From assembly GCF_000010625.1 (NCBI RefSeq), contig NC_010296.1:1890001-1922000 (forward strand): a DNA stretch of 32,000 nt, written 5' to 3'. This document shows positions 1,573 through 32,000 of this stretch, piece after piece; positions within the stretch are counted from its first letter, which is position 1; every line of letters begins with the position of its first letter. A program made the translations under genes and the position numbers. Source of the DNA: Microcystis aeruginosa NIES-843. GTDB taxonomy: Bacteria; Cyanobacteriota; Cyanobacteriia; Cyanobacteriales; Microcystaceae. The notes beneath the pieces were generated by a model, which made no database searches, was not told the DNA's origin, and saw only the letters and a program-made list of their open reading frames with translations.

Positions 1573-3949
1573 ATGCTTTGTTTATCTGTAGAGTCAAAAT
1601 CTCAAGGCGAAATTTTTCAGGACATTTCTACTTTTGTAGATATTTTGAACCATAGAGCATTGCAGCAAGCCGAGCAAACAGCTTATATCTTTTTGGCTAA
1701 TGGAGAAACAGAAACCGCCAGACTGACTTATCAGCAATTAGATCAAAAAGCAAAAGCTTTGGCGGCTCAACTTCAGTTACAAATGTCTCCGGGAGAAAGA
1801 GCTTTATTGCTCTATCCATCAGGGGAAGAATTTATCATTGCTTTCTTTGCCTGTTTATATGCTGGTGTTATTGCTGTTCCTGTTTATCCCCCCCGACGTA
1901 ATCAAAAGCTCTCTCGACTACAAGCAATCACTAAAGATGCTCAGGCCAAACTGGCCTTAACTACTACATCCTTATTAAGGACTATTGAGGAAAAATTTTC
2001 GAGTGATCCTGAGTTAGTAACAGTACCTTGCTTAGCTACTAATAACATCTCGGATGAGCAAGCAGAAAACTGGCAAAAACTGAATCTTTCGGTTCTTCGG
2101 TTTTTGTTATGCAATGGAGGGGGGTTATAAGGGATGAAACCCTTATATATAAAGACATTGCTTCGATTTTTGCCAATTGTTTTCGATCTAGAACGAGCTA
2201 ATCAATTAAGTCTCTTGCCAGATAAGGATTTAGTCGATTTATGCCACCCGATCAAACCATACCAAGTAACGAAGAACCAATCTTTCTTTAGAGGACATAG
2301 CTTTCCTACAATATACTTCCGGTTCAACAGGTATGCCTAAAGGAGTTATGGTTAGTCATAAAAATTTACTTCATAATGAAAGACTGATTGCTTCTGCCTT
2401 TGGACACACAAGCAAAACTATTGGTGTAGGATGGTTGCCACTATTCCATGATATGGGACTAATTGGTCACGTATTACAACCCATATACGTCGGATTTCCT
2501 TCTGTGATTATGCCTCCAGAAGCATTTATCCAAAAACCGCTCCGATGGTTACAAGCTATTTCTCGCTACAAAGCTACCAGTAGTGGTGGACCTAATTTTG
2601 CTTATGAATTATGTGCCTCTAAAATTAAACCTCAAGAGCGAGAAAATCTGGATTTAAGTTGTTGGGATGTGGCTTTTAATGGAGCCGAACCTGTGCGAGC
2701 AATTACATTAGAAAAATTTGCTAATACTTTTGCTGATAGTGGTTTTAAGAGAGAGGCATTTTACCCTTGTTATGGGATGGCTGAAACTACTCTATTTGTA
2801 TCGGGGGGAATTAAAAGCCAATCTCCTGTGATTGAAGCAGTTGATAAATTAGCTCTTTTAGAAAATAGTGCCGTTACTATTAACTGTCAACACCCGAATG
2901 CTCAGTTATTGGTCGGTTGTGGTCACGCTTGGTTATCAGAAAAAATTGTGATTGTGAATCCTGAATCGTTAACTGAATGTCGAGATGGAGAAATAGGAGA
3001 AATTTGGGTATCTAGTGATAGTGTAGCTCAGGGTTATTGGAATCGACCCGAACAGACAGAAGAAACTTTCAAAGCTTATTTAGCTGATACCCAGGTCGGT
3101 CCATTTCTGCGGACAGGAGATTTAGGATTTTTACTGGCTGGTGAGTTATTTATCACAGGCAGACTCAAGGACTTAATTATTGTTCAAGGACGTAATCATT
3201 ATCCTCAAGATATTGAATCCACCGTCGAAAAAAGTCACCTGGGATTGCGGCAAGGGTGTGGAGCAGTATTTTCAGTGGAAATTGCTGGCCAAGAAAGGCT
3301 AGTGGTTGTCCAAGAGGTAGAGCGGAGTTATCTGCGTAAATTAGACTCACCAGAGGTAATTGAGCAAATTATTCGCTCTGTTGCCGAAGAACATCAGCTA
3401 GATGTTTATGCCGTCGCACTTCTTAAGACAGCAAGTATTCCTAAAACCTCTAGTGGTAAAATTCAACGAATAGCTTGTCGGACTGCTTTCCTAGCGGGAA
3501 CTCTTGATGTGATTGGCGATTGGAGTAAAATTCCATCTCAAAAAAAGGACTTCATAAAACTAGAATCAGATGTTAATCATTTGTTAGAAAAATTAAAAAC
3601 TTTTTCGCACTTATCAGAATCATCTGAGTACAAGGCTATTTATGAAGAGATTGAACAGTGGTTAATTGCTAAATTTGCAGAACTAAAGGAAACGGCTGAT
3701 GAAAACATAGACGTTCGACAAAATATCGGATTTGATTCCTTGGTAGCTGCTGAATTAAATAATCTGTTTAACACTAACTGGGGAGTTGAAATCCCTATAG
3801 ATAATTTTATTGAAGGTGTTAGTGTTAATAGTTTAACAGCAATTTTGACTAACAAAATATCAGAGAATCGCTGGAAGTTTACGGAACAAATAGACCAAAT
3901 GAATGATGAAGAAGTGGATGCTTTACTCAGTTCCATATTATCTAAATAG
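1573..3949 (+). pseudogene. Fatty acyl-AMP ligase fused to an acyl carrier domain (FAAL-ACP), interrupted by a MITE
   Basis: ORF 1573..2130 carries a FAAL-type N-terminus (LLLYPSGEEFIIAFFACLYAGVIAVPVYPPRRNQ). ORF 2333..3949 carries the rest of the adenylation fold and a C-terminal carrier domain with GFDSL. Deleting 2091..2286 (the MITE plus one TSD copy, 196 nt) joins the frames. This regenerates ...NLSLEDIAFLQYTSGSTGMPKG, the AMP-binding core motif, and gives a 726-aa protein. Confidence 0.9.
2091..2278 (+). mobile_element. 188-bp MITE, copy 1
   Basis: Imperfect terminal inverted repeats: GGTTCTTCGGTT... at the left end and ...AAGTAACGAAGAACC at the right. An 8-bp target-site duplication AATCTTTC lies at 2083-2090 and 2279-2286. 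There is an internal hairpin TATAAGGG-ATGAAA-CCCTTATA. It is roughly 93% identical by eye to 9835..10022. No transposase is encoded. Confidence 0.9.
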
Positions 3950-12052: not shown

Positions 12053-12113
12053 CTGCCCAAAAATTACTTGCCAAAAATTGGCCTTTCATGTTAGACTAAA
12101 ATAATGTCATCTT

Positions 12114-12205
12114 GGAGAGGTGGCAGAGTGGTCGAATGCGGCAGATTGCTAATCTGTTGTACGAATCGTAAGACCGTACCGAGGGTTCGAATCCCTCCCT
12201 CTCCG
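12114..12205 (+). tRNA. tRNA-Ser (anticodon GCU)
   Basis: Acceptor stem GGAGAGG/CCTCTCC. Anticodon stem GCAGA/TCTGT with loop TTGCTAA. Long class II variable arm. T-arm GAGGG-TTCGAAT-CCCTC. No encoded CCA. Track ORF 12104..12337 is an artefact. Confidence 0.85.
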
Positions 12206-12224
12206 TATTTTTTGGGTAGGTTCG

Positions 12225-16488: not shown

Positions 16489-19400
16489 ATGCCAGTCCTC
16501 ACCATCCGCGAAGAAGGAATTAACGATGGTGGCTTTACTGCTACTCTCAATTTTGATAGCGGTAACAGCTACCCAATTACGGTTACTGACCCCTTTACTA
16601 ACCAAGAAGAAAAACAACTAGAATGGTACTTTGAGGAATGGTTAGTATTTCCGACGCTAGACACGGATAAGGCGCAAAAAGCCGCCAACAGCGTCCAAAA
16701 CTATGGCGAAAACCTATTTAAACAGGTTTTCCAGAGTAATTTAAATGCTTATGGGGAATATCGAGACTTGCGAAAGCAGTTAAGTCAACTGCAAATTATC
16801 ATCGAAAGTCAGTCGCCAGAATTTCAAGCTTTACATTGGGAAGCGCTGAAAGATCCTGATTTACCGCGTCCTTTTTCTATAGATTGTATCATCTCCCGCC
16901 AGCGTCGAGGGGCTACAGTTGTCCCGGTGCAAATGGCCACTTATCCTACTATCAATCTTCTGGTGGTGATTGCGCGTCCTAATGAGGAATCTGATGTTAA
17001 CTATCGCACGATTTCCCGTCCTTTGGTAGAACTGGTAAATAGTAGTGAAATACCGGTAAAAATTGATATATTGCGTCCCGGAACTTATGAATCACTAACC
17101 AGACATCTGGATGAGAAGGGAGAAGGATACTATCATGTTATTCATTTCGATGTTCATGGCGGATTAATGGAATATGAACAGTACCAAAGACAGGTTCACG
17201 GGGATTCTTGGCGCTATCAAAGGGGATGGGGACTGGAGGATTTAGCAGAATATGAGGGAGTAAAAGCTTTTCTGTTTCTGGAAGGAGAAGAAAAAGGTCA
17301 AGCGACTCCGGTAGAAGCGACGGAATTAGCGAATTTACTCACTGGGAAAAATATCCCTATTTGTATTCTCAATGCTTGTCAGTCAGCAAAGCAAATTTCC
17401 CAGGAATCAGAAGACTATCGGGAAACCAGTTTAGGGAGTCGTTTGATGACTGCGGGAATGCAAGCTGTGGTGGCGATGGGATATTCGGTGACGGTTTCTG
17501 CAGCTAAGTTGATGATGAAACCAATTTATCAGCAATTATTGAACGGAAAAGACCTAACGGAAGCGATGCGAAAGGGACGGTTAGAGTTATTCAATAATAA
17601 GCAACGCCGCGCCTATTATAACACGAGAATAGATTTAGAAGATTGGTTATTACCGGTGATTTATTGTCGCGGTAAAATTAATCTCAATTTGCGTCCATTT
17701 ACTCCAGAAGAGGAGGAAAAATACTGGGAACATATCGGCAATCAATATGTCTTTCCTTTACCAGAATACGGCTTTGTGGGAAGGGATTTAGAAATTCTCA
17801 AGATGGAAAAGGCGCTGCTGAAACATAATATCCTTTTACTCAAAGGAATGGGAGGGACAGGAAAAACTACTTTACTCAATTATCTACGAGAATGGTGGCA
17901 GAAAACCAACTGGGCGACCCATATTTTCTATTTTGGTTATGATAGAAAAGCTTGGACGTTAGAACAGATTGTCCATGAAATTGGTCAGGGAATTTATAAT
18001 CGCTTTGAACAGGCGAGTTTCCAAGCGATGAACCTGAAAGCGCGGGTAAAGAAACTAGAGCAAAAACTCCGCAGTGAGGCGTATATTCTCATTTTAGATA
18101 ATCTGGAGTCGGTGACGGGACAACCGTTAGCAATTCAGAATACTTTACCGGAGAATGAAAGGGAAGCAATCGCCGAATTTCTCAAGAATTTGGTCGGGGG
18201 AAAAACGAAGGTGATTTTGGGTTCTCGCAGTGAGGAAACTTGGCTGCAACGCAGGACTTTTAAGGAGAATATCTATCAGTTACAAGGATTAGACCAAGAG
18301 TCGAGAACTGAATTAGCGGAGAGAATCTTAGAACGTCAGGCGAAGAGTCGGAAAAATGCGATTAAAAAGGATGATTATTTTAAACGTTTGATGAAGTTGT
18401 TGGCGGGATATCCGTTGGCGATGGAAGTGGTATTAGCGAATCTGAAGCGACAGTCACCGGAGGAGATTTGGCAAGGGTTACAGTTGGCGGAATTAGCTGA
18501 TGTGGGGGATGAGGATAAGACTAATAATATCATCAAGTGTGTGGAATATTCCCACAGTAATTTGTCGGAGGAGGCGCAGAAGTTGTTACTCTGTTTAGCA
18601 CCTTTTAGTGGGTTTATTCACAGGGGTGTTATTCCTATTTATAGCCAAAAACTACAGCAATTAGAACCTTTACAAGGCTATCAGTTTGATCAATTTGATG
18701 CAGCGATAGAAGAAGCGATTCATTGGGGTTTGCTTTCGCCGATGAGTGAAGAATTGCCGTATTTATTGACTATCCAGCCCATTTTTCCCTACTTCCTGAA
18801 GACGAAGTTAAAGGAATTAGCACCAGAGACACAAGCAGCAATTTGGGAGGGTTTTAAGAATCATTACCGAGACTTGGCAGGTTATTATGATACCTTACTA
18901 GATTCCAAAAATCCGCAGGAGAAGCAGTTAGGGATATTGTTCTGTCGCTGGGAGTATGAAAATCTGTTTAATGCGTTGCAAATCGCCCTCAATCAGCAAG
19001 AGAGCGTATTGACTATTATTAATTGCTTGCATAGTTATCTGGATTTAAACCAAGATACTCAGACTAATTTAAAGCTCCTAGAGTTCGTTCTCGAAACTTT
19101 TGAAAACTATCCCCCTGAAGCCAAACAAGGGCAGGTGGCAATAGAAATCATTGGTATAATTGACGAGGCAGGAAACAAATATTTACAAAGTAAAAATTAT
19201 CAGAAAGCGAAAGAGATTTACCAAAAAAGCCTTGAATTACTCAAGCCAATTAGTGAAAGTTACAGTCAATCTAAGCAATCTTTCCAAGCCATCACCCTGC
19301 ACAATTTGGGAATCGTAGCGCAAGAATTGAGGGAATGGGAACAGGCGCGACTCTACTTCCAGCAGGCTATTGAGATCTACATTGAATATGGGGATCGCTT

Positions 19401-20133
19401 CTCCCAAGCTACCACCCTGCACCAGTTGGGAACGGTAGCGCAACAATTGAGGGAATGGGAGCAAGCCCGAAGCTACTACCAGCAAGCTATTGGGATCTGC
19501 ATTGAATATGGGGATCGCTACTCCCAAGCCATCACCCTGCACAATTTGGGAGCCGTAGCGGCAGAATTGAGGGAATGGGAGCAAGCCCGAAGCCACTACC
19601 AGCAAGCTATTGGGATCTGCATTGAATATGGGGATCGCTACTCCCAAGCCATCACCCTGCACTGTTTGGGAATGGTAGCGGCAGAATTGAGGGAATGGGA
19701 GCAAGCCCAAAGCTACTACCAGCAAGCTATTGAGATCTACATTGAATATGGGGATCGCTACTCCCAAGCCAGCACCCTGCACCACTTGGGAAACCTAGCG
19801 CAAGCATTGAGGGAATGGGAGCAAGCCCGAAGCTACTACCAGCAAGCTATTGAGATCTACATTGAATATGGGGATCGCTACTCCCAAGCTGGAACCCTGC
19901 ACAATTTGGGAATGGTAGCCAAAGCAGTTGGGGAATTGAGCCAAGCCAAAAGTTATTACCTGCAAGCCTTACAAATTTGGGCAGAATTTAACGATAATTA
20001 CACCATACAAACCTATTCTTTGCCTCGTCTTGTTGCTCTTTATCAGCAAACGCAAGATGAGGAGATTCTTGTCGGTATTGCTTCTGTTTTCGGGGTTGGG
20101 GTTGAGGAGGTGCGGGGTTTGCTGGAGGGTTAG
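16489..20133 (+). CDS. CHAT (caspase-like protease) - STAND/NB-ARC-type P-loop NTPase - TPR repeat protein (bacterial NLR-like)
   Basis: 1214 aa. Caspase-fold dyad candidates are His223 (VIHFDVHGG) and Cys297 (ILNACQSA). Walker A GMGGTGKTT (Lys459), Walker B-like ILILDNLE. The C-terminus has six 40-aa TPR-like repeats. Confidence 0.85.
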   Translation: MPVLTIREEGINDGGFTATLNFDSGNSYPITVTDPFTNQEEKQLEWYFEEWLVFPTLDTDKAQKAANSVQNYGENLFKQVFQSNLNAYGEYRDLRKQLSQLQIIIESQSPEFQALHWEALKDPDLPRPFSIDCIISRQRRGATVVPVQMATYPTINLLVVIARPNEESDVNYRTISRPLVELVNSSEIPVKIDILRPGTYESLTRHLDEKGEGYYHVIHFDVHGGLMEYEQYQRQVHGDSWRYQRGWGLEDLAEYEGVKAFLFLEGEEKGQATPVEATELANLLTGKNIPICILNACQSAKQISQESEDYRETSLGSRLMTAGMQAVVAMGYSVTVSAAKLMMKPIYQQLLNGKDLTEAMRKGRLELFNNKQRRAYYNTRIDLEDWLLPVIYCRGKINLNLRPFTPEEEEKYWEHIGNQYVFPLPEYGFVGRDLEILKMEKALLKHNILLLKGMGGTGKTTLLNYLREWWQKTNWATHIFYFGYDRKAWTLEQIVHEIGQGIYNRFEQASFQAMNLKARVKKLEQKLRSEAYILILDNLESVTGQPLAIQNTLPENEREAIAEFLKNLVGGKTKVILGSRSEETWLQRRTFKENIYQLQGLDQESRTELAERILERQAKSRKNAIKKDDYFKRLMKLLAGYPLAMEVVLANLKRQSPEEIWQGLQLAELADVGDEDKTNNIIKCVEYSHSNLSEEAQKLLLCLAPFSGFIHRGVIPIYSQKLQQLEPLQGYQFDQFDAAIEEAIHWGLLSPMSEELPYLLTIQPIFPYFLKTKLKELAPETQAAIWEGFKNHYRDLAGYYDTLLDSKNPQEKQLGILFCRWEYENLFNALQIALNQQESVLTIINCLHSYLDLNQDTQTNLKLLEFVLETFENYPPEAKQGQVAIEIIGIIDEAGNKYLQSKNYQKAKEIYQKSLELLKPISESYSQSKQSFQAITLHNLGIVAQELREWEQARLYFQQAIEIYIEYGDRFSQATTLHQLGTVAQQLREWEQARSYYQQAIGICIEYGDRYSQAITLHNLGAVAAELREWEQARSHYQQAIGICIEYGDRYSQAITLHCLGMVAAELREWEQAQSYYQQAIEIYIEYGDRYSQASTLHHLGNLAQALREWEQARSYYQQAIEIYIEYGDRYSQAGTLHNLGMVAKAVGELSQAKSYYLQALQIWAEFNDNYTIQTYSLPRLVALYQQTQDEEILVGIASVFGVGVEEVRGLLEG
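19285..20004 (+). repeat. Intragenic 120-bp tandem repeats (5 near-identical units plus 1 diverged) encoding the TPR array
   Basis: The period of 120 nt was verified from CAAGCC at 19285 and CAAGCT at 19405. The unit is QAxTLHxLGxVAxxLREWEQARSYYQQAIEIYIEYGDRYS. The antisense track ORF 19237..19785 is a by-product. Confidence 0.9.
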
Positions 20134-20220
20134 AATGGGTTTTGGGCGTAGGCTGCGTGTTTGCGGCTATCAATTCAGTTAACGTAAGTAGCTGGTTATA
20201 ATTAAATTAAAAATGGATTT

Positions 20221-20280
20221 TAGGTTCGATCCCCCCTGCCCCCCTTGATAAGGGGGGAATAACGAACCTAGTTTGTTGTT
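20221..20280 (+). terminator. Possible terminator / palindromic element after the CHAT-STAND gene
   Basis: Nested inverted repeats TAGGTTCG...CGAACCTA enclose CCCCCC-TTGATAA-GGGGGG, followed by GTTTGTTGTT. Confidence 0.35.
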
Positions 20281-20287
20281 GCGCTCC

Positions 20288-20392
20288 CTTCGCTAAATTC
20301 TCTCCCCTTTCCTTGTAGGAGAAAGGCCAGGGGAGAGGTCAATAATTAAGAACCCAATGCGATCACACTATCTGGTAAAGATCAAGTATAAT
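20288..20392 (+). repeat. 105-bp non-coding module R, copy 1
   Basis: CTTCGCTAAATTCTCTCCCCTTTCCTTGTAGGA...CAGGGGAGAGGTCAATAATTAAGAACCCAATGCGATC...GATCAAGTATAAT. It contains the hairpin CTCTCCCC/GGGGAGAG and ends in a TATAAT box. A near-identical copy lies at 22662..22766. Confidence 0.85.
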
Positions 20393-20405
20393 AATAAATA
20401 TAAAG

Positions 20406-20434
20406 ACCAAATTATTCATCTACCGTTAACTTAA
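20406..20434 (+). pseudogene. Orphan 3' tail of a DUF5615-type toxin gene
   Basis: ACCAAATTATTCATCTACCGTTAACTTAA (..QIIHLPLT*) matches the last codons of the intact gene at 23489..23517 (ACCAAATTATTCATTTACCGTTAACCTGA). It sits right after module R copy 1. Confidence 0.65.
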
Positions 20435-20444
20435 TGAAAGCCAA

Positions 20445-20942
20445 ATGAACTTATTAAAACAATCGGACATTCAAGAAAATCCCACAACACTTTACGAACA
20501 AGATCTTCAGTTGTGGATTGAGCAAACTATTCATCAATTACAGAATCGACAGTTTGAACAACTGGATATAGAAAACTTAATTGAGGAGTTAAAAGATTTG
20601 GGTAAGTCAGAGAAACGCGCCTTAGAGAGCAACTTAATGGTCTTGTTGATTCACTTACTCAAATTAAAGATACAGCATGATGCTCCTGAGACAATGAAAG
20701 CAAGTTGGTATAATTCAGTAGATGAGCATCGCCAGCGCGTTCAAGATGATTTACTTAAGACTCCCTCTCTTAAATCTTATCTCTTAATCTCCATCACACA
20801 AGCCTATTCCAGCGCTCGTAAAGTCGCCATCAAACAGGGTAAACGCGCTCAATTTGGTATTCGTATTCCCCAAGAAAGTGAGTATCCCCTCGCTTGTCCT
20901 TTCACACCTGAACAGATTCTAAATGAGGACTTTTACGGATAA
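20445..20942 (+). CDS. DUF29 family protein
   Basis: 165 aa. LYEQDLQLWIEQTIHQLQNRQFEQLDIENLIEELKDLGKSEKRALESNL is the characteristic DUF29 N-terminus as I recall it. Confidence 0.75.
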   Translation: MNLLKQSDIQENPTTLYEQDLQLWIEQTIHQLQNRQFEQLDIENLIEELKDLGKSEKRALESNLMVLLIHLLKLKIQHDAPETMKASWYNSVDEHRQRVQDDLLKTPSLKSYLLISITQAYSSARKVAIKQGKRAQFGIRIPQESEYPLACPFTPEQILNEDFYG

Positions 20943-20980
20943 AAACGAAAGTAAACATTATCAATAATAAAACCATGAAA

Positions 20981-21080
20981 CCAGAATAAGTACCTAAGCA
21001 AAATTAATTACACATATCTAACCACCTCTTGCCTCTTGCCTATCTTCACTAGGAAATTAATTTTGCACGACTACTTATCA
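20981..21080. mobile_element. ~100-bp MITE-like insertion
   Basis: Flanked by the 9-bp direct repeat ACCATGAAA (20972-20980 and 21081-21089). The ends carry an inverted ATAAGTA..AAAATTAATT / AATTAATTTT..TACTTAT. One terminus recurs inverted at about 1283-1316. Confidence 0.55.
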
Positions 21081-21177
21081 ACCATGAAAACAGGTGATAT
21101 TGTTTTAATGATTAAATTATCATTGAACCCTAACGCACCATCTTCATAAAATTGGTTTGTTACGCTACAAACTACTA

Positions 21178-21645
21178 CTAAATATAGATATAACCCAAGC
21201 CAAAGACACGAAGCAAATCTCGGCATCCTTCTTCAAAATTATCATTAAAATTAATAATTTGGAAGCTAGGTAAGACCCAAGAAAGTTTTGTATATTCACA
21301 AGGTTGATAGAGAATTGGCAAAATTTTATCTTCAAAACGCTGATCCTGTAAAGTAAAAATTAGTTCTCGCTTTACCCACATAGAATCGACCGCATCAGGA
21401 GAGAGAACGATAATAAACCAATCACATCGCCTCAAAGCTTTCCCAATTTCATCATGCCATTGCTGTGCGCCTAAAATATTAGTTTCACTATACCAAACGG
21501 GAACTCCATGACGGCGTAATTCATTGGCCAAATGAGAGACAAACTCTCGATTTTTGCTAGAATGGGAAAGAAAAGCTTCTTGGGGAATCATCTCATACCT
21601 ATAGTTAAAATTAGACAAAGCATAGCTTGGGATGAGACAAGCCAA
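21178..21645 (-). CDS. TIR domain protein (TIR-B)
   Basis: 155 aa. TIR start AFLSHSS, then ...VPVWYSE...WFIIVLSPDAVDSMWVKRELIF with a conserved Glu candidate. An alternative start at the internal Met (ATG 21589-21591) is likely. The upstream TIR gene ends 2 nt before this ORF. Confidence 0.75.
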   Translation of the reverse strand: MACLIPSYALSNFNYRYEMIPQEAFLSHSSKNREFVSHLANELRRHGVPVWYSETNILGAQQWHDEIGKALRRCDWFIIVLSPDAVDSMWVKRELIFTLQDQRFEDKILPILYQPCEYTKLSWVLPSFQIINFNDNFEEGCRDLLRVFGLGYIYI

Positions 21646-21647
21646 AT

Positions 21648-22091
21648 CTAAAAGTGGTGTATCTCATGAGTCAGTCCGTCGGAGCTTGTCGTATTTTTAA
21701 GTGCCTGTGTAATTTCTTTCAATTCTTGATTGTCTTGTTCAAGATTAGGGACGAAAATCATTGGAAATTTTTTGAGAATCCAAGGAATATGTTCTAGGTT
21801 TGAATTATCTGAGGAAGAGACAATAACAGGAATGATACGACCTTGATACTTTTCTTCTCCAATTGCATAACTAATATCAGAAACAACATTAAAAGGCTTC
21901 AGTGATTCTGGTGTTAATAAGACTATCATTGCTTCAGATTCTTGTAAGGCTTTACCTATGTTATTAGCCCAGTTTTCCCCGGGTAACATTTCAGCAGCAT
22001 CCCAAACTTGAAAGCCATCTTCTTTGAGAGAATCAGCAACTCTCTTAGCTAACTTAGCCTCAGTAAAGGCATGACTAATAAAAACTTTCAT
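21648..22091 (-). CDS. TIR domain protein (TIR-A)
   Basis: 147 aa. MKVFISHAF...GFQVWDAAEMLPGENW...AMIVLLTPESL follows the TIR_2-like pattern. No obvious W-x-x-x-E motif is present (the sequence is NVVSDISYAIGE instead). Confidence 0.7.
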   Translation of the reverse strand: MKVFISHAFTEAKLAKRVADSLKEDGFQVWDAAEMLPGENWANNIGKALQESEAMIVLLTPESLKPFNVVSDISYAIGEEKYQGRIIPVIVSSSDNSNLEHIPWILKKFPMIFVPNLEQDNQELKEITQALKNTTSSDGLTHEIHHF

Positions 22092-25986: not shown

Positions 25987-28900
25987 ATGAATAGCCCCTT
26001 TCTCGACTACCTCAACGGCCCCAAGCATCCCGTCCTCGTCTTTGATGGGGCGATGGGAACTTCCCTACAAAGCCAAAATCTGACGGCCGAGGACTTTGGT
26101 GGGGCAGAATACGAAGGTTGTAACGAGTATCTTGTCCATACTAAACCTAGCGCCGTAGCGAAAGTCCACGAAGCTTTTTTAGCCGTGGGTGCGGATGTGA
26201 TTGAAACCGACACCTTTGGGGGAACCTCGATAGTTTTAGCCGAGTACGATTTAGCCGATCAAGCCTATTATCTCAACAAAACCGCCGCCGAACTGGCCAA
26301 GGCTTGCGCTAATAAATACTCTACCCCCGAAAAACCCCGTTTTGTGGCGGGTTCCATGGGGCCGGGGACAAAACTGCCCACTTTGGGTCATATTGACTTT
26401 GATACTCTCAAAAATGCCTATGTGGAACAGGTAGAGGGTCTGTACGATGGCGGGGCAGATTTATTATTAGTAGAAACCTGTCAGGATGTCCTGCAAATTA
26501 AAGCGGCTTTAAATGCTATTGAAGAAGTATTTCAGCAAAAAGGTCAACGATTGCCCCTCATGGTTTCGGTGACGATGGAAACCATGGGAACGATGTTAGT
26601 AGGAACGGAAATTAACGCCGTTGTCTCTATTTTACAACCCTATAAAATCGATATTTTGGGACTTAACTGCGCCACTGGTCCCGATTTAATGAAACCCCAT
26701 ATTAAATATCTCTCGGAAAATTCCCCTTTTATTGTTTCTTGTATTCCTAACGCTGGTTTACCGGAAAATGTCGGCGGTCAAGCGCACTATCGCCTCACTC
26801 CCGTAGAATTAAAAATGGCTTTAATGCACTTTATCGAAGATTTGGGAGTACAAATTATCGGCGGTTGTTGTGGTACTCGTCCCGACCATATTCAAGCTTT
26901 AGCGGAACTATGTCAAGGTTTAACTCCGAAATCTCGTCATTATCATTATGAACCCTCCGCCGCTTCTATTTATAGTACCCAACCCTATATTCAAGATAAT
27001 TCTTTCCTGATTGTCGGGGAAAAATTAAACGCCAGTGGTTCTAAAAAATGTCGGGAACTTCTCAATGCTGAAGACTGGGATAGTTTAGTATCTATGGCGA
27101 AAGCGCAGGTAAAAGAAGGGGCGCATATTCTCGATGTCAACGTCGATTATGTGGGCCGGGATGGGGTGCGCGATATGCACCAATTAGCCTCTCGTTTAGT
27201 TAATAATGTCACCCTACCTTTAATGTTAGATTCCACCGAATGGGAAAAAATGGAAGCGGGGTTAAAAGTAGCGGGGGGTAAATGTATCCTCAACTCTACT
27301 AACTACGAAGACGGGGAACCGCGTTTTTATCAAGTCTTGGATTTAGCGAAAAAATACGGCGCGGGGGTAGTAATTGGAACCATTGATGAAGAAGGAATGG
27401 GACGCACTGCCGAGAAAAAATTCCAGATAGCTAAACGGGCCTATTATGCGGCGATAGAATACGGAATTCCTCCCTACGAAATCTTTTTTGATCCTTTAGC
27501 TTTACCGATTTCTACCGGTATCGAAGAAGACCGAGAAAATGGCAAGGCTACTATCGAAGCAATGGGCCGAATTCGCCAAGAATTGCCAGAATGTCACATT
27601 CTTTTAGGTGTGTCTAATATCTCCTTTGGCTTGAATCCGGCAGCGCGTCAGGTATTAAATTCCGTCTTCCTCAACGAAGCGATGCAGGTGGGGATGGATG
27701 GGGCAATCGTCAGCGCTAATAAAATTCTTCCTCTGGCAAAAATTGAACCAGAATATCAGCAAGTTTGTCGGGATTTAATCTATGATAATCGTCGTTTTGA
27801 TGGCGATATATGTGTTTATGATCCCCTGACCAAATTAACCGAATTATTTGCGGGGAAAACTACTAAAAAAGACCCCTCTAGTAATGCTAATTTACCCGTG
27901 GAGGAACGATTAAAACAGCATATTATTGATGGGGAAAGATTGGGACTGGAAGACGCTTTGAATCAAGCTTTACAGGACTATCCACCCCTAGATATTATTA
28001 ATATTTTCCTCTTGGATGGGATGAAGGTAGTGGGTGAGTTATTTGGTTCGGGACAAATGCAGTTACCTTTTGTTCTCCAATCTGCCCAAACTATGAAAGC
28101 AGCTGTTGCTTTTTTAGAACCCTTTATGGAGAAAAAAGAGGGGGATAATAATGCCAAAGGGACTTTTATTATCGCAACAGTTAAAGGGGATGTTCACGAT
28201 ATTGGTAAAAATTTAGTTGATATTATCTTGACAAATAACGGCTATAAGGTGATTAATTTGGGCATTAAACAACCCGTAGAAAATATCATCGAAGCCTACA
28301 AAGAACATAAAGCCGATTGTATCGCTATGAGCGGTTTATTGGTGAAATCAACGGCTTTTATGAAGGAAAATCTGGAGGTTTTTAACGAAAAAGGAATCAC
28401 CGTTCCCGTTATCCTTGGCGGGGCAGCTTTAACTCCCAAATTTGTCCATGATGACTGTCAAAAAACCTACAAGGGACAGGTTATCTATGGTAAAGATGCC
28501 TTCTCTGACCTGCATTTTATGGATAAATTAATGCCCGCTAAAGCTGGGGGTCAATGGGATGATAGCAAAGGCTTTTTAGCGGAGTGTGCCGAGACAGAAA
28601 AAACCCCGGTTGTCGCCGAAGAATTAGAGGTTAATCCCGATACTATTTTTACCGATGGCAGCGTGGACAAAGAATTAGTTATTGATACCCGTCGTTCGGA
28701 AGCGGTGGAAGTTAATATTCCCCGACCAACACCGCCCTTCTGGGGTACTAAAATATTAACAGCAGCAGAAATTCCCATCGAGGAGGTTTTCTGGTATTTA
28801 GACCTACAAGCTTTATTTGTCGGTCAATGGCAATTCCGCAAACCCAAAAGCCAATCGAAGCCAGAATACGACCAGTTTTTACAGGAAAAAGTTCATCCAA

Positions 28901-29550
28901 TTCTAGCAGCATGGAAAGAGAAAATTGTCAAGGAAAATTTACTAAACCCCACATTAATTTATGGTTATTTTCCCTGTCAGTCGTCCGGTAATTCCCTGTT
29001 AATTTACGATCCCGAATCGATACAAGCGGGCGAAAAACCCGAAAATCTGCAACCGATCGCCATTTTTGAGTTTCCTCGCCAGAAATCCGGTCGTCGTCTC
29101 TGTATTGCTGACTTTTTCGCCCCGCAGGAATCCGGTATTATCGACGTTTTCCCGATGCAAGCAGTGACAGTGGGGGAAATCGCCACGGAATACGCTAAAT
29201 CTCTCTTTGATGCCAACCAATACACCGAATACCTCTATTATCACGGCATGGCTGTCCAAACCGCCGAAGCCATGGCCGAATGGACCCACACCCGCATCCG
29301 TCGCGAGTTAGGTTTCGCAGAGTTCGATCCCGATAATATCCGCGATATACTACAACAGCGTTACCAGGGTTCTCGCTATAGTTTCGGCTATCCCGCTTGT
29401 CCCAATATTCAGGACCAATACAAGCAACTAGATCTGTTAGGATGCGATCGCATTGGGATGTCTATGGACGAAAGCGAACAATTGTACCCAGAACAATCCA
29501 CCACCGCCATTATCACCTATCACCCCACCGCTAAATACTTTAGTACCTAA
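25987..29550 (+). CDS. metH: Cobalamin-dependent methionine synthase
   Basis: 1187 aa with the full five-module order: Hcy-binding, pterin-binding, cap, B12-binding with DVHDIGKN (DxHxxG), and the AdoMet activation domain. Confidence 0.95.
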
Positions 29551-29551
29551 T

Positions 29552-29620
29552 CAGTTATCAGTGATCAGTGATCAGTTATCAGGTGTGAGTTATCAGTGAT
29601 TCAGTTATCAGGTGTGAGTT
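29552..29620. repeat. Heptamer repeats CAGTTAT/CAGTGAT interleaved with CAGGTGTGAGTT
   Basis: Starts 2 nt after the metH stop. Read directly. Confidence 0.9.
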
Positions 29621-29650
29621 TTTATCGGTAAAACCCTACACCCCACACCC

Positions 29651-30342
29651 GTTACAGTAGAGCAGGAAGTCGCCTTCCCACCCCCTGCTTCAAAACCGGA
29701 CTTACGACTTTCGCCGTATCCGGCTCCTGAGTAACTAGGCTACTGTCATTAGTAGAATAATAATGGGAATTATTATTTCCTTGTCTATTCAACCCTCTTG
29801 GCTGTATCCCCACCAGACAAGATTGTTGGTTTTAGGGCGTATATGACCGTTGATTGTTGCTTAGACTTCCTAGTTACCCGTCCTTTGTCAGCATATCTTT
29901 GATATTACTCAAAGCCTTGGCTTTTAAGGACATCCTCTCCCTCTATTGACTTGCGGATGGTTTCCTACTGCCCCGAACGGGCAGAGTCAATCAGGGTTAC
30001 TTCGTTCCCTATAACCATTGGTTGAACCCTTAGGATGATACTGTCCACAACAGAGTAACGGGAATGCCTTACTGATAGTGGTATGAGCTATCAGCCCCAA
30101 CTCTGTTAACTTTTGTTTCGAGCCTGTCAGCCTTTTGGCTCGTGGGTGTTGACGATGGTTAATTCGTATCTTCGCCCCAGGGCTATCCATAGGTTCTGGC
30201 TCAACGGGTTTCTGATTTAGGCTATCAGATACCGCTTTTTTTTCCTCGCTCACTACCTCAGATGTACCAAGTCTAAAGCAGCAGGAAATGCCGTCACTCT
30301 AGGCATCTAGAGGACAGGACTAAGGTTATTACTAACCCGCAC
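29651..30342 (-). mobile_element. ORF-less group II intron, copy 1 (692 nt)
   Basis: - The minus strand begins GTGCGGGTTAG (GUGYG) at 30342.
- The canonical 34-nt domain V, GAGCCGGATACGGCGAAAGTCGTAAGTCCGGTTT, is the complement of 29693-29726. It has the AGC triad, a GAAA tetraloop and a 2-nt bulge.
- The domain VI helix has a GCGA loop and a bulged A (complement of 29658) 7 nt from the 3' end ...CTGTAAC.
- Domain IV is reduced to an AT-rich hairpin, and there is no RT ORF. Confidence 0.85.
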
Positions 30343-30456
30343 CTGTAGGGTTATAAAGTTATCAAGGTACTACATTTACCAAGCGGCTAATCCTCTAAAC
30401 GTCTTACTGTCTAGTTTCTAGCCAACGAATCGCACCACACCCCACACCCTACACCC

Positions 30457-31148
30457 GTTACAGTAGAGCAGGAAGTCGCCTTCCCACCCCCTGCTTCAAA
30501 ACCGGACTTACGACTTTCGCCGTATCCGGCTCCTGAGTAACTAGGCTACTGTCATTAGTAGAATAATAATGGGAATTATTATTTCCTTGTCTATTCAACC
30601 CTCTTGGCTGTATCCCCACCAGACAAGATTGTTGGTTTTAGGGCGTATATGACCGTTGATTGTTGCTTAGACTTCCTAGTTACCCGTCCTTTGTCAGCAT
30701 ATCTTTGATATTACTCAAAGCCTTGGCTTTTAAGGACATCCTCTCCCTCTATTGACTTGCGGATGGTTTCCTACTGCCCCGAACGGGCAGAGTCAATCAG
30801 GGTTACTTCGTTCCCTATAACCATTGGTTGAACCCTTAGGATGATACTGTCCACAACAGAGTAACGGGAATGCCTTACTGATAGTGGTATGAGCTATCAG
30901 CCCCAACTCTGTTAACTTTTGTTTCGAGCCTGTCAGCCTTTTGGCTCGTGGGTGTTGACGATGGTTAATTCGTATCTTCGCCCCAGGGCTATCCATAGGT
31001 TCTGGCTCAACGGGTTTCTGATTTAGGCTATCAGATACCGCTTTTTTTTCCTCGCTCACTACCTCAGATGTACCAAGTCTAAAGCAGCAGGAAATGCCGT
31101 CACTCTAGGCATCTAGAGGACAGGACTAAGGTTATTACTAACCCGCAC
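30457..31148 (-). mobile_element. ORF-less group II intron, copy 2
   Basis: Offset of exactly 806 nt from copy 1. Appears identical to copy 1 by eye along the whole length. Confidence 0.85.
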
Positions 31149-31237
31149 CTGTAGGGTTATAAAGTTATCAAGGTACTACATTTACCAAGCGGCTAATCCT
31201 CTAAACGTCTTACTGTCTAGTTTCTAGCCAACGAATC

Positions 31238-31318
31238 GCACCACACCCCACACCCTACACCCCACACCCTACACCCTACACCCCACACCCCACACCCTAC
31301 ACCCCACACCCTACACCC
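31238..31318. repeat. Heptamer tract CACACCC/TACACCC (about 11 units) abutting the intron 3' end
   Basis: The same tract is about 2.5 units at 29634-29650 and about 3 units at 30434-30456. This length difference explains the 862-nt versus 806-nt unit spacing. Confidence 0.9.
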
Positions 31319-32000
31319 GTTACAGTAGAGCAGGAAGTCGCCTTCCCACCCCCTGCTTCAAAACCGGACTTACGACTTTCGCCGTATCCGGCTCCTGAGT
31401 AACTAGGCTACTGTCATTAGTAGAATAATAATGGGAATTATTATTTCCTTGTCTATTCAACCCTCTTGGCTGTATCCCCACCAGACAAGATTGTTGGTTT
31501 TAGGGCGTATATGACCGTTGATTGTTGCTTAGACTTCCTAGTTACCCGTCCTTTGTCAGCATATCTTTGATATTACTCAAAGCCTTGGCTTTTAAGGACA
31601 TCCTCTCCCTCTATTGACTTGCGGATGGTTTCCTACTGCCCCGAACGGGCAGAGTCAATCAGGGTTACTTCGTTCCCTATAACCATTGGTTGAACCCTTA
31701 GGATGATACTGTCCACAACAGAGTAACGGGAATGCCTTACTGATAGTGGTATGAGCTATCAGCCCCAACTCTGTTAACTTTTGTTTCGAGCCTGTCAGCC
31801 TTTTGGCTCGTGGGTGTTGACGATGGTTAATTCGTATCTTCGCCCCAGGGCTATCCATAGGTTCTGGCTCAACGGGTTTCTGATTTAGGCTATCAGATAC
31901 CGCTTTTTTTTTTCCTCGCTCACTACCTCAGATGTACCAAGTCTAAAGCAGCAGGAAATGCCGTCACTCTAGGCATCTAGAGGACAGGACTAAGGTTATT
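31319..32000 (-). mobile_element. ORF-less group II intron, copy 3 (5' ~12 nt cut by the window end)
   Basis: Same sequence. The only difference seen is a T10 run (31874-31883) where copies 1 and 2 have T8. Confidence 0.8.

Follow-up and report, generated by a model that had tools for sequence, protein, structure and literature searches.

Several described systems come close to the locus reported here. The TeI3 introns of Thermosynechococcus elongatus, group II introns without an open reading frame (ORF), keep remnants of that frame and are mobilised in trans by TeI4 reverse transcriptases (RTs) (PMC2882425). Similarly, the work of Meng et al. (2005), as it is cited in PMC12584367, describes several related ORF-less introns in the dnaN gene of Trichodesmium erythraeum that are spliced by the RIR intron RT, and the background given in PMC8643678 describes group IIC introns as targeting terminators or attC stem-loops. 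In Escherichia coli, two copies of the subgroup IIB1 intron EcKTE56.groEL integrate head to tail at one locus, such tandem integration amounting to 22% for the ORF-deleted version and 4% for the other version (Gomes et al. 2025, PMC12584367). Here we describe a stretch of 32,000 nt from Microcystis aeruginosa NIES-843 (contig NC_010296.1, positions 1,890,001 to 1,922,000; hereafter the window), which carries at its far end, on the minus strand, a head-to-tail array of at least three nearly identical ORF-less group II introns separated by nothing other than units of the 7-nt repeat GGGTGTR. The copies most likely stand in an array because the heptamer repeat is the intron's own homing site, which would make the locus a natural instance of a mechanism that is already known. 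We give a probability of about 0.75 to the joint reading that this is an ORF-less IIB1 intron with a homing site of two heptamers that retrohomed repeatedly into one tract with an RT supplied in trans.

The element in the window is closest to TeI3: both are cyanobacterial ribozymes of the IIB1/chloroplast-like (CL) type with a deletion in domain IV that left ORF remnants, and both occur as many near-identical intergenic copies with good pairing between exon-binding sites (EBS) and intron-binding sites (IBS) and a presumed RT in trans (Mohr, Ghanem & Lambowitz 2010, PMC2882425). However, the TeI3 copies are dispersed or nested, whereas the Microcystis target is a tandem repeat that is read twice and gives rise to tandem arrays; the word 'tandem' is absent from the full text of the TeI3 paper, and the driver RT, which is TeI4 in T. 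elongatus, is presumed in Microcystis. With EcKTE56.groEL the element shares the IIB1 class and a 5′ subterminal insertion, and that system demonstrates that retrohoming alone is able to build tandem copies (PMC12584367). There, the second copy abuts the first (CCGAC joined directly to GTGCG) by way of a U-G wobble between EBS3 and the first intron nucleotide (PMC12584367). In contrast, each Microcystis copy has full heptamer exons of its own, with 3 or 11 units between copies, and the array is a natural one of at least three copies rather than the product of an over-expression assay. As far as the cited account of the Trichodesmium introns goes, these too are closely related ORF-less cyanobacterial introns that depend on one RT-encoding relative, a dependence that we would extend to Microcystis; they occupy different sites in an essential gene, whereas the Microcystis copies share a single repeated site within non-coding repeats. 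Group IIC introns, as outlined in that background, also home into abundant, non-essential, repeated intergenic motifs; they recognise a DNA hairpin and have no EBS2, whereas the Microcystis intron pairs through EBS1 and EBS2 with a linear tandem repeat.

A first-pass annotation, made from the sequence alone, had recognised at least three head-to-tail copies on the minus strand, and its measurements are correct, far beyond chance. RF00029, the Rfam model of domains V and VI (Intron_gpII), matched three times on that strand with 55 bits each, against a gathering score of 40, and a direct-repeat finder returned the start-to-start periods of 806 and 862 nt that had been proposed. The 34-nt domain V, the bulged A of domain VI 7 nt from the 3′ end and the continuation of the array past the end of the window were likewise found as described. 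We call the copies A, B and C, copy A being cut by the window end, and number intron positions on copy B (30457-31241, minus strand). Copies B and C are each complete and are 100% identical; copy A differs from them solely in having A10 instead of A8 in a poly-A run of domain I, which is the T8/T10 difference noted earlier on the plus strand. The array extends beyond the window, giving a copy number of at least three. Tandem Repeats Finder identified a 7-nt repeat at 31241-31318, and both spacers, of 21 and 77 nt, are multiples of seven in the same phase, (GGGTGTR)3 and (GGGTGTR)11. The shorter one serves as the 3′ exon of copy B and as the 5′ exon of copy C.

The claim that had to be revised was the 5′ boundary. 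The annotation had started a 692-nt intron at a GUGCG at 31148 and 30342 and had left a 114-nt non-coding spacer between copies. The true 5′ end is GUGCGAUUCGUUGGCUAGAAAC, at 31241 and 30435, where a GUGCG is present as well, and the intron is 785 nt long; the GUGCG chosen before is intron position 94, within domain I, and the supposed spacer consists of 21 nt of heptamers and intron positions 1-93. When one period was searched against plasmids with BLASTN, only this former spacer matched, at the 5′ ends of group II introns annotated on Nostocales plasmids. In a Fremyella plasmid (L003, AP018240) the match opens a 2427-nt intron with an ORF for a 607-aa RNA-directed DNA polymerase and an RF00029 match at its end, and in Nostoc UHCC 0926 (L004) it opens a 1129-nt intron. 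In a three-way alignment with these two introns homology was continuous through the formerly proposed splice site, AGGUGCGGG of the window aligning to AGGUGAGCC of the Nostoc intron. Furthermore, a scan of 185,579 species-representative genomes for the 5′ 22-mer GTGCGATTCGTTRGCTAGAAAC (one R position) found it in at least 120 contigs, those listed being all cyanobacterial but for a few 'uncultured bacterium' metagenome-assembled genomes (MAGs) and one Sericytochromatia MAG. Given this recurrence in at least 120 contigs, a large family of IIB1 introns in cyanobacteria has GUGCGAUUCGUUGGCUAGAAAC as its conserved 5′ end. A metagenome scan with the 3′ end retrieved two full-length solo copies, L125 (99.7% identity) and L126 (98.6%), whose similarity to the window spans exactly positions 1-785. 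Comparison of a filled with an empty site, the occupied repeat of L126 with its unoccupied paralogue at L125:3188-3208, defined an insertion of the same 785 nt; empty sites resembling the latter are also found in L130 and L133.

These data bear on two other ways of parsing the repeated unit. According to the first, the unit is a composite of a 692-nt intron and a 114-nt flank, for which the GUGCG pentamer at 31148/30342 and a weak match to the model group-II-D1D4-2 downstream of it can be cited. Homology with full-length introns nevertheless crosses position 94; copies at other loci all carry the 93 nt after the heptamers and none begins at 94; the empty-site comparison yields the longer insertion; and positions 81-87, upstream of the supposed start, covary as a stem with 420-426. 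Within positions 1-93 lie the 5′ GUGCG, two hairpins (12-52 and 56-70) and one side of the domain I basal stem, its 5′ strand (81-87), without which a molecule of 692 nt would be unable to close domain I. We regard the composite unit as very improbable and reject it. With the boundary corrected, what is repeated is just the intron, set in the heptamers that it targets, and the puzzle of a repeated flank is gone: the case that the annotation had made for unequal recombination or a composite element rested on the misplaced 5′ splice site, and the surprise is an artefact of where the boundary was put. The predicted ligated junction changes with it, from AACCCTACAG joined to GGGTGT to GGGTGTG joined to GGGTGTR. 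According to the second alternative, the array is built of twintrons, in which the 93 nt are the 5′ fragment of an outer intron and the remaining 692 nt are an inner one. Two GUGCG motifs do lie 93 nt apart, and the Moorena relatives L074, L082 and L100 do sit within other introns. Each unit has a single domain V, however; heptamers, and no remainder of an outer intron, follow each copy; and the 93 nt together with the rest are colinear with the single introns of Fremyella and Nostoc. A twintron is still less credible than the composite unit and is also rejected. The element is neither of these, nor is it a new class.

To place the ribozyme, the full 785-nt RNA was folded. Its minimum free energy (MFE) is -259.5 kcal/mol (z = -5.1 against dinucleotide shuffles), and the MFE and centroid folds both take up the six-domain layout DI-DVI (Table 1), in which domains II-IV are drawn from energy folding only. 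When 79 family members were aligned, clear compensatory changes emerged in the basal stem of domain I, 81-87/420-426: pair 84/423 is G-C in 28 members and A-U in 26, and pair 81/426 is A-U in 32, G-C in 16 and U-A in 4. The stem of the EBS1 hairpin also shows compensatory changes among these relatives, and the stem 12-18/46-52 is conserved with covariation at 13/51. UAUGG at 245-249 with CCUAAG at 402-407 is a candidate tetraloop-receptor of the 11-nt type. A 5′ insertion has been described for bacterial IIB1 introns (PMC8643678, PMC12584367), and the two hairpins predicted ahead of the domain I basal stem, 12-52 and 56-70, correspond to it. The RT of the Fremyella intron finds its best match in the Protein Data Bank (PDB) in the T. 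elongatus intron RT 6ME0_C (E = 1.8e-108), which belongs to a IIB1 intron, and its homologues have RVT_N, RVT_1, GIIM and HNH domains. By every sequence-level criterion applied, the element classifies as a non-autonomous, ORF-less group II intron of subgroup IIB1/chloroplast-like.

EBS1 and EBS2 lie in two loops that are complementary to the 5′ exon. EBS1 (CAUACC) pairs at six of six positions, one of them G-U, with the IBS1 GGUGUG at -6 to -1, and EBS2 (ACACC) at five of five with the IBS2 GGUGU at -13 to -9. Position -8, where the R varies, takes no part in the pairing. The homologous loops of relatives fit their own, unrelated exons, as in L088 with UUUCAG/CUGAAA and UUAGC/GCUAA. Among 72 non-redundant family introns, complete EBS1-IBS1 pairing was found in 31 (mean 4.6, maximum 14 in 1000 exon shuffles) and complete EBS2-IBS2 pairing in 34 (mean 5.1, maximum 12). 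EBS1 and EBS2 are near-duplicates that together read two consecutive heptamers and then a G at +1, so that any (GGGTGTR)n with n of at least 2 would be a homing site. The 3′ exons of 12 copies all have G at +1, and 11 of them have GGG; they do not have to be heptamers (GGGAGA, GGGTTTAG and GCCCCC), which fits a requirement for IBS3 at +1 alone. Position -14 is a G, and its candidate partner, C292, lies 3′ of EBS2, in contrast to the 5′ location in EcI5 (EBS2a-IBS2a). One further candidate was tried and discarded: ACCCUACA (intron 85-92) is complementary to UGURGGGU and was considered as an additional exon-binding site; C89 of L029, however, faces an exon A, and the adjacent segment 81-87 forms the covarying basal stem, positions 88-89 being just outside it. 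Those two positions (31153-31154 and 30347-30348) vary between strains in copies that are otherwise about 99% identical, with CU shared by the window and L125, AU found in L126, UU in the MAG M131 and CC in Microcystis sp. T1-4. The heptamer-complementary octamer ACCYYACA around them showed no covariation with the exon.

The preference for heptamers is seen again in the dispersed copies. The nearest relatives, in an M. aeruginosa MAG and in Microcystis sp. T1-4, are 99% identical over the first ~100 nt. At 12 loci on Microcystis genome contigs, each with unrelated DNA upstream, GUGCGAUUCG comes directly after heptamers. The 5′ exon ends in GGGTGTRGGGTGTR in 10 of these 12 and in both solo copies, the other two (L036 and L015) having degenerate heptamers; at least 13 distinct Microcystis loci, two of them degenerate, thereby share the heptamer 5′ exon with the array. 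In the MAG M131, nine 5′ ends at unlinked loci are identical over ~100 nt. The copy in L126 lies within a repeat that is dispersed in Microcystis, ...GCTGAAAAAGTTTTTCCTAGGGGCA-(heptamers)-GGGTTTTACCGATTTTGAGGGGG, and after the last copy of the array, at 29630-29650, two heptamers lead into the arm GGGTTTTACCGAT that is common to this repeat. Heptamer tracts of 2-8 units that are free of introns occur 9 times in 156 kb of Microcystis loci. The dispersed repeat itself, ...GCTGAAAAAGTTTTTC(C/G)T(R)GGGGCA-(GGGTGTR)n-GGGTTTTA(C/G)C(G/C)AT..., has the heptamer tract at its centre and is found both occupied and empty (flanks of L126:2161-2964; L125:3188-3208; L130:2486-2513; L133:3138-3165; window 29630-29650). 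Three degenerate or truncated Microcystis copies, L015:4695, L029 (minus strand) and L123:6285, have no domain V, which indicates that the intron family also leaves fossils; L015 has an internal deletion of ~47 nt, between GGTAA and TAACC, and the other two carry large deletions or insertions. As regards carriage by phage, no viral contig matched the 5′ end pattern.

The absence of an RT or maturase ORF, stated in the annotation, held up: the longest ORF, in domain I, encodes 88 aa, and tblastn with the Fremyella RT found no RT-like sequence in the array region. Domain IV aligns locally to positions 511-639 of the Fremyella intron, where the leader and the opening codons of the RT lie; the window copy has ACG in place of the ATG. 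A second alignment, to positions 2325-2426, takes in the last part of domain IV and everything up to domain VI. In between, where the Fremyella intron has ~1.7 kb of ORF, the window copy has ~40 nt, an AU hairpin (659-680) among them. The copies are descendants of an RT-encoding intron that underwent a deletion of ~1.7 kb in domain IV. Seven group II RTs have been reported for M. aeruginosa NIES-843, and an HNH/McrA domain is present in six (PMC8934634); because of these we infer that the array copies were mobilised in trans by the RT of a full-length relative elsewhere in the genome.

These features lead to a simple model of how the array arose. A (GGGTGTR)n tract would offer n-1 overlapping target sites, and an insertion in phase would leave usable sites on both flanks. 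Repeated retrohoming with an RT in trans would then give a head-to-tail array with spacers of whole numbers of heptamers, and unequal exchange between tracts may alter the copy number further. Given transcription of the minus strand, each intron would be spliced out as a lariat and a seamless heptamer tract re-ligated. No gene is disrupted, and the tract would act as a safe haven: as it is intergenic, and as splicing would bring back the seamless repeat, insertion should do no harm.

An alternative to repeated insertion, which carries the mechanism of the annotation over to the corrected unit, is that the intron retrohomed once and was then amplified in tandem, the heptamer tracts on either side of it allowing unequal sister-chromatid exchange or replication slippage. 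The sequences of copies B and C are, after all, indistinguishable and copy A departs from them merely in a slippage-prone homopolymer; the flanking tracts are ideal for unequal exchange, and the short spacer (A-G-G) could be the contracted end of the long one (...A-G-G). Such amplification is, however, superfluous once the boundary is corrected, and the unlinked copies of M131 are as uniform as those of the array, so identity is no pointer to local duplication. The intron is often inserted at the heptamer motif at unlinked sites, and tandem integration is readily seen experimentally (PMC12584367). We consider amplification after a single insertion unlikely as the whole explanation, though a serious contender; it is compatible with repeated retrohoming rather than exclusive of it, the two processes are complementary, and we give repeated retrohoming the greater weight as the simplest account. 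We also considered that one intron, or fewer than are seen, was expanded by mis-assembly of the repeat. Short-read assemblies do break here: the only contigs found to encode an identical MetH (L001 and L002, 3.7 kb) stop 32-67 nt past the gene, other Microcystis contigs end ~100 nt into the intron, and the A8/A10 difference is a typical long-read error. The two spacers differ, however, in length and in the pattern of A and G units (3 as against 11 heptamers), which a collapsed or duplicated repeat would not give, and the structure is coherent, with in-phase spacers and intact EBS/IBS pairing at every copy. An assembly artefact is accordingly improbable.

Several observations weigh against repeated retrohoming with an RT in trans. 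The identity of the copies makes repeated insertion indistinguishable from gene conversion and from duplication through unequal exchange. In about half of the Microcystis 5′ exons an A at -1 mismatches C351 of EBS1. Neither the window nor any of the Microcystis loci examined yielded an RT gene, and there is no Microcystis protein among the best 120 homologues of the Fremyella RT. A scan of the array for promoters and terminators gave results at chance level, the promoter-like sites being weak and internal to the introns. Finally, the covariance models divided: RF00029 recognised every copy, whereas the models of domains I-IV did not reach threshold, the best of them, group-II-D1D4-2, giving a partial match (model positions 47-116) of 26.7 bits where the gathering score is 36 (E = 0.003 for a search space of 891 nt). 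This last result means that no Rfam D1-D4 model fits the lineage well and is no argument against the fold.

Among 123 insertion sites of the family, tandem repeats form the 5′ exon throughout the Microcystis lineage and in two Moorena introns. In Moorena sp. SIO3I8 (L110:4315-6737, minus strand) a 2423-nt intron with a 434-aa RT ORF lies in phase within (GGGGAGAT)n, and its EBS1 CCAUCU and EBS2 CCAUC both match the octamer. In Moorena producens 3L (L012:4381) the 5′ end follows a (GGGAGTA)n tract, GGGAACA GGGAGTA GGGAGTA G, with matching EBS1 CUACUC and EBS2 UGCUC; no domain V was found within 3.6 kb downstream, and this copy may be truncated or interrupted. Three cases only, these hint that two near-identical exon-binding sites reading a tandem repeat are a recurrent solution. 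A lineage of cyanobacterial IIB1 introns may have specialised in short tandem repeats, with EBS1 and EBS2 as near-copies, tracts as harmless and self-renewing landing pads and introns piling up into arrays, and the Moorena introns would have come to this independently; we propose this tentatively, as something a little short of an even bet. Two further observations concern the Moorena loci: a heptamer tract, (GATTCCC)n, lies ~100 nt downstream of the L110 intron, and the introns at L074:3146, L082:1042 and L100 (minus strand, 4043) begin right after a sequence resembling domains V and VI (...CGGTTCTGAAGGAGAGG followed by GTGCG), so that they appear to be inserted, twintron-like, in domain VI of another group II intron.

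Table 1. Features of the intron array and the adjoining gene in the window; intron positions are those of copy B.
Feature	Position in window	Strand	Position in intron	Basis or remark
RF00029 matches	29651-29728, 30457-30534, 31319-31396	minus		Rfam search
Intron copy A, with A10	31319-32000+	minus		window end falls at intron position 106
Spacer B/A, exactly 11 heptamers, 77 nt	31242-31318	minus		
Intron copy B, complete, 785 nt	30457-31241	minus		RF00029, fold, identity to copy C
Start of intron copy B, formerly called spacer	31149-31241	minus	1-93	L003/L004 homology, 22-mer, stem covariation
Two 5′ hairpins			12-52, 56-70	
Domain I			about 77-437	
EBS2 ACACC, internal loop	30951-30955 (copy B)	minus	287-291	
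EBS1 CAUACC, loop of hairpin 341-365	30886-30891 (copy B)	minus	351-356	
Domain II			440-497	
Domain III			505-556	
Domain IV, copy B	30535-30685	minus	557-707	local alignment to L003 intron
Domain V, copy B, AGC triad and GAAA tetraloop	30499-30532	minus	710-743	
Domain VI			748-782	bulged A778
Predicted branch-point A778	30464	minus	778	unpaired in domain VI helix, 7 nt before last nucleotide
Spacer C/B, exactly 3 heptamers GGGTGTA GGGTGTG GGGTGTG, 21 nt	30436-30456	minus		
Intron copy C, complete, 785 nt, nearest metH	29651-30435	minus		identical to copy B; RF00029; L125/L126 boundaries
Ends of copy C	30435 (5′), 29651 (3′)	minus		5′ GUGCGAUUCG; 3′ ...CUACUGUAAC
3′ exon of copy C, GGGTGTG GGGTGTA GGGTTTT	29630-29650	minus		heptamer tract end
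metH, cobalamin-dependent methionine synthase	25987-29550	plus		five Pfam domains; convergent with array, uninterrupted

The array faces metH, as had been noted, and the 3′ end of the last intron lies 100 nt from the end of the gene. The interval after the metH stop (29550-29620) is occupied by another heptamer repeat that is unrelated to the first. Its unit is ATCAGTT on the plus strand and of the CTGATAA type on the minus strand, and it has 8.7 units and a higher-order period of 29 nt. The window has a G+C content of ~42%, in keeping with the genus Microcystis. Positions 1-707 hold the 3′ end of a 23S rRNA and a 5S rRNA, and a tRNA-Ser(GCU) lies at 12113-12206. A gene for an AMP-binding protein (acyl-CoA synthetase/adenylation) is spread over two plus-strand ORFs, 1573-2130 and 2333-3949, which cover profile positions 3-143 and 176-384; the split could reflect a frameshift, a pseudogene or a small insertion. 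A cluster with the look of a defence region extends from 16489 to 22091 and comprises a 1214-aa CHAT-NACHT/NB-ARC-TPR protein (16489-20133, plus), a DUF29 protein (20445-20942, plus) and two adjacent TIR-domain ORFs (21178-21645 and 21648-22091, minus).

A limited search of the literature on Microcystis introns, ORF-less tandem introns and introns in heptamers or short tandemly repeated repetitive (STRR) sequences found no description of this arrangement. Within that literature, a heptamer microsatellite as homing site and a natural array of at least three copies split by repeat units alone appear to be undescribed, and multi-copy tandem integration was found elsewhere only in the E. coli over-expression assay. 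What had been an anomaly is replaced by a testable rule, that the homing site is two heptamers plus a G. Loci with introns in heptamers explain breaks in short-read assemblies of Microcystis, and a compact IIB1 ribozyme of 785 nt with a simple, programmable-looking target could be of interest for targetron work in this genus. Among eukaryotes, the TRAS and SART non-LTR retrotransposons of Bombyx, which are specific for telomeres or microsatellites, build arrays within repeat tracts, a target that is harmless and renews itself. The parallel is one of analogy only, as these belong to a different class of element and use a protein endonuclease where the intron uses base pairing by a ribozyme. Our data suggest that short tandem repeats may act as safe havens for ribozyme-guided retroelements. 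If a IIB1 lineage has indeed specialised in such repeats, it would be the bacterial equivalent, guided by a ribozyme, of those eukaryotic retrotransposons that are specific for telomeres and microsatellites, and would connect two abundant and unexplained features of cyanobacterial genomes, their heptamer repeats and the proliferation of their introns.

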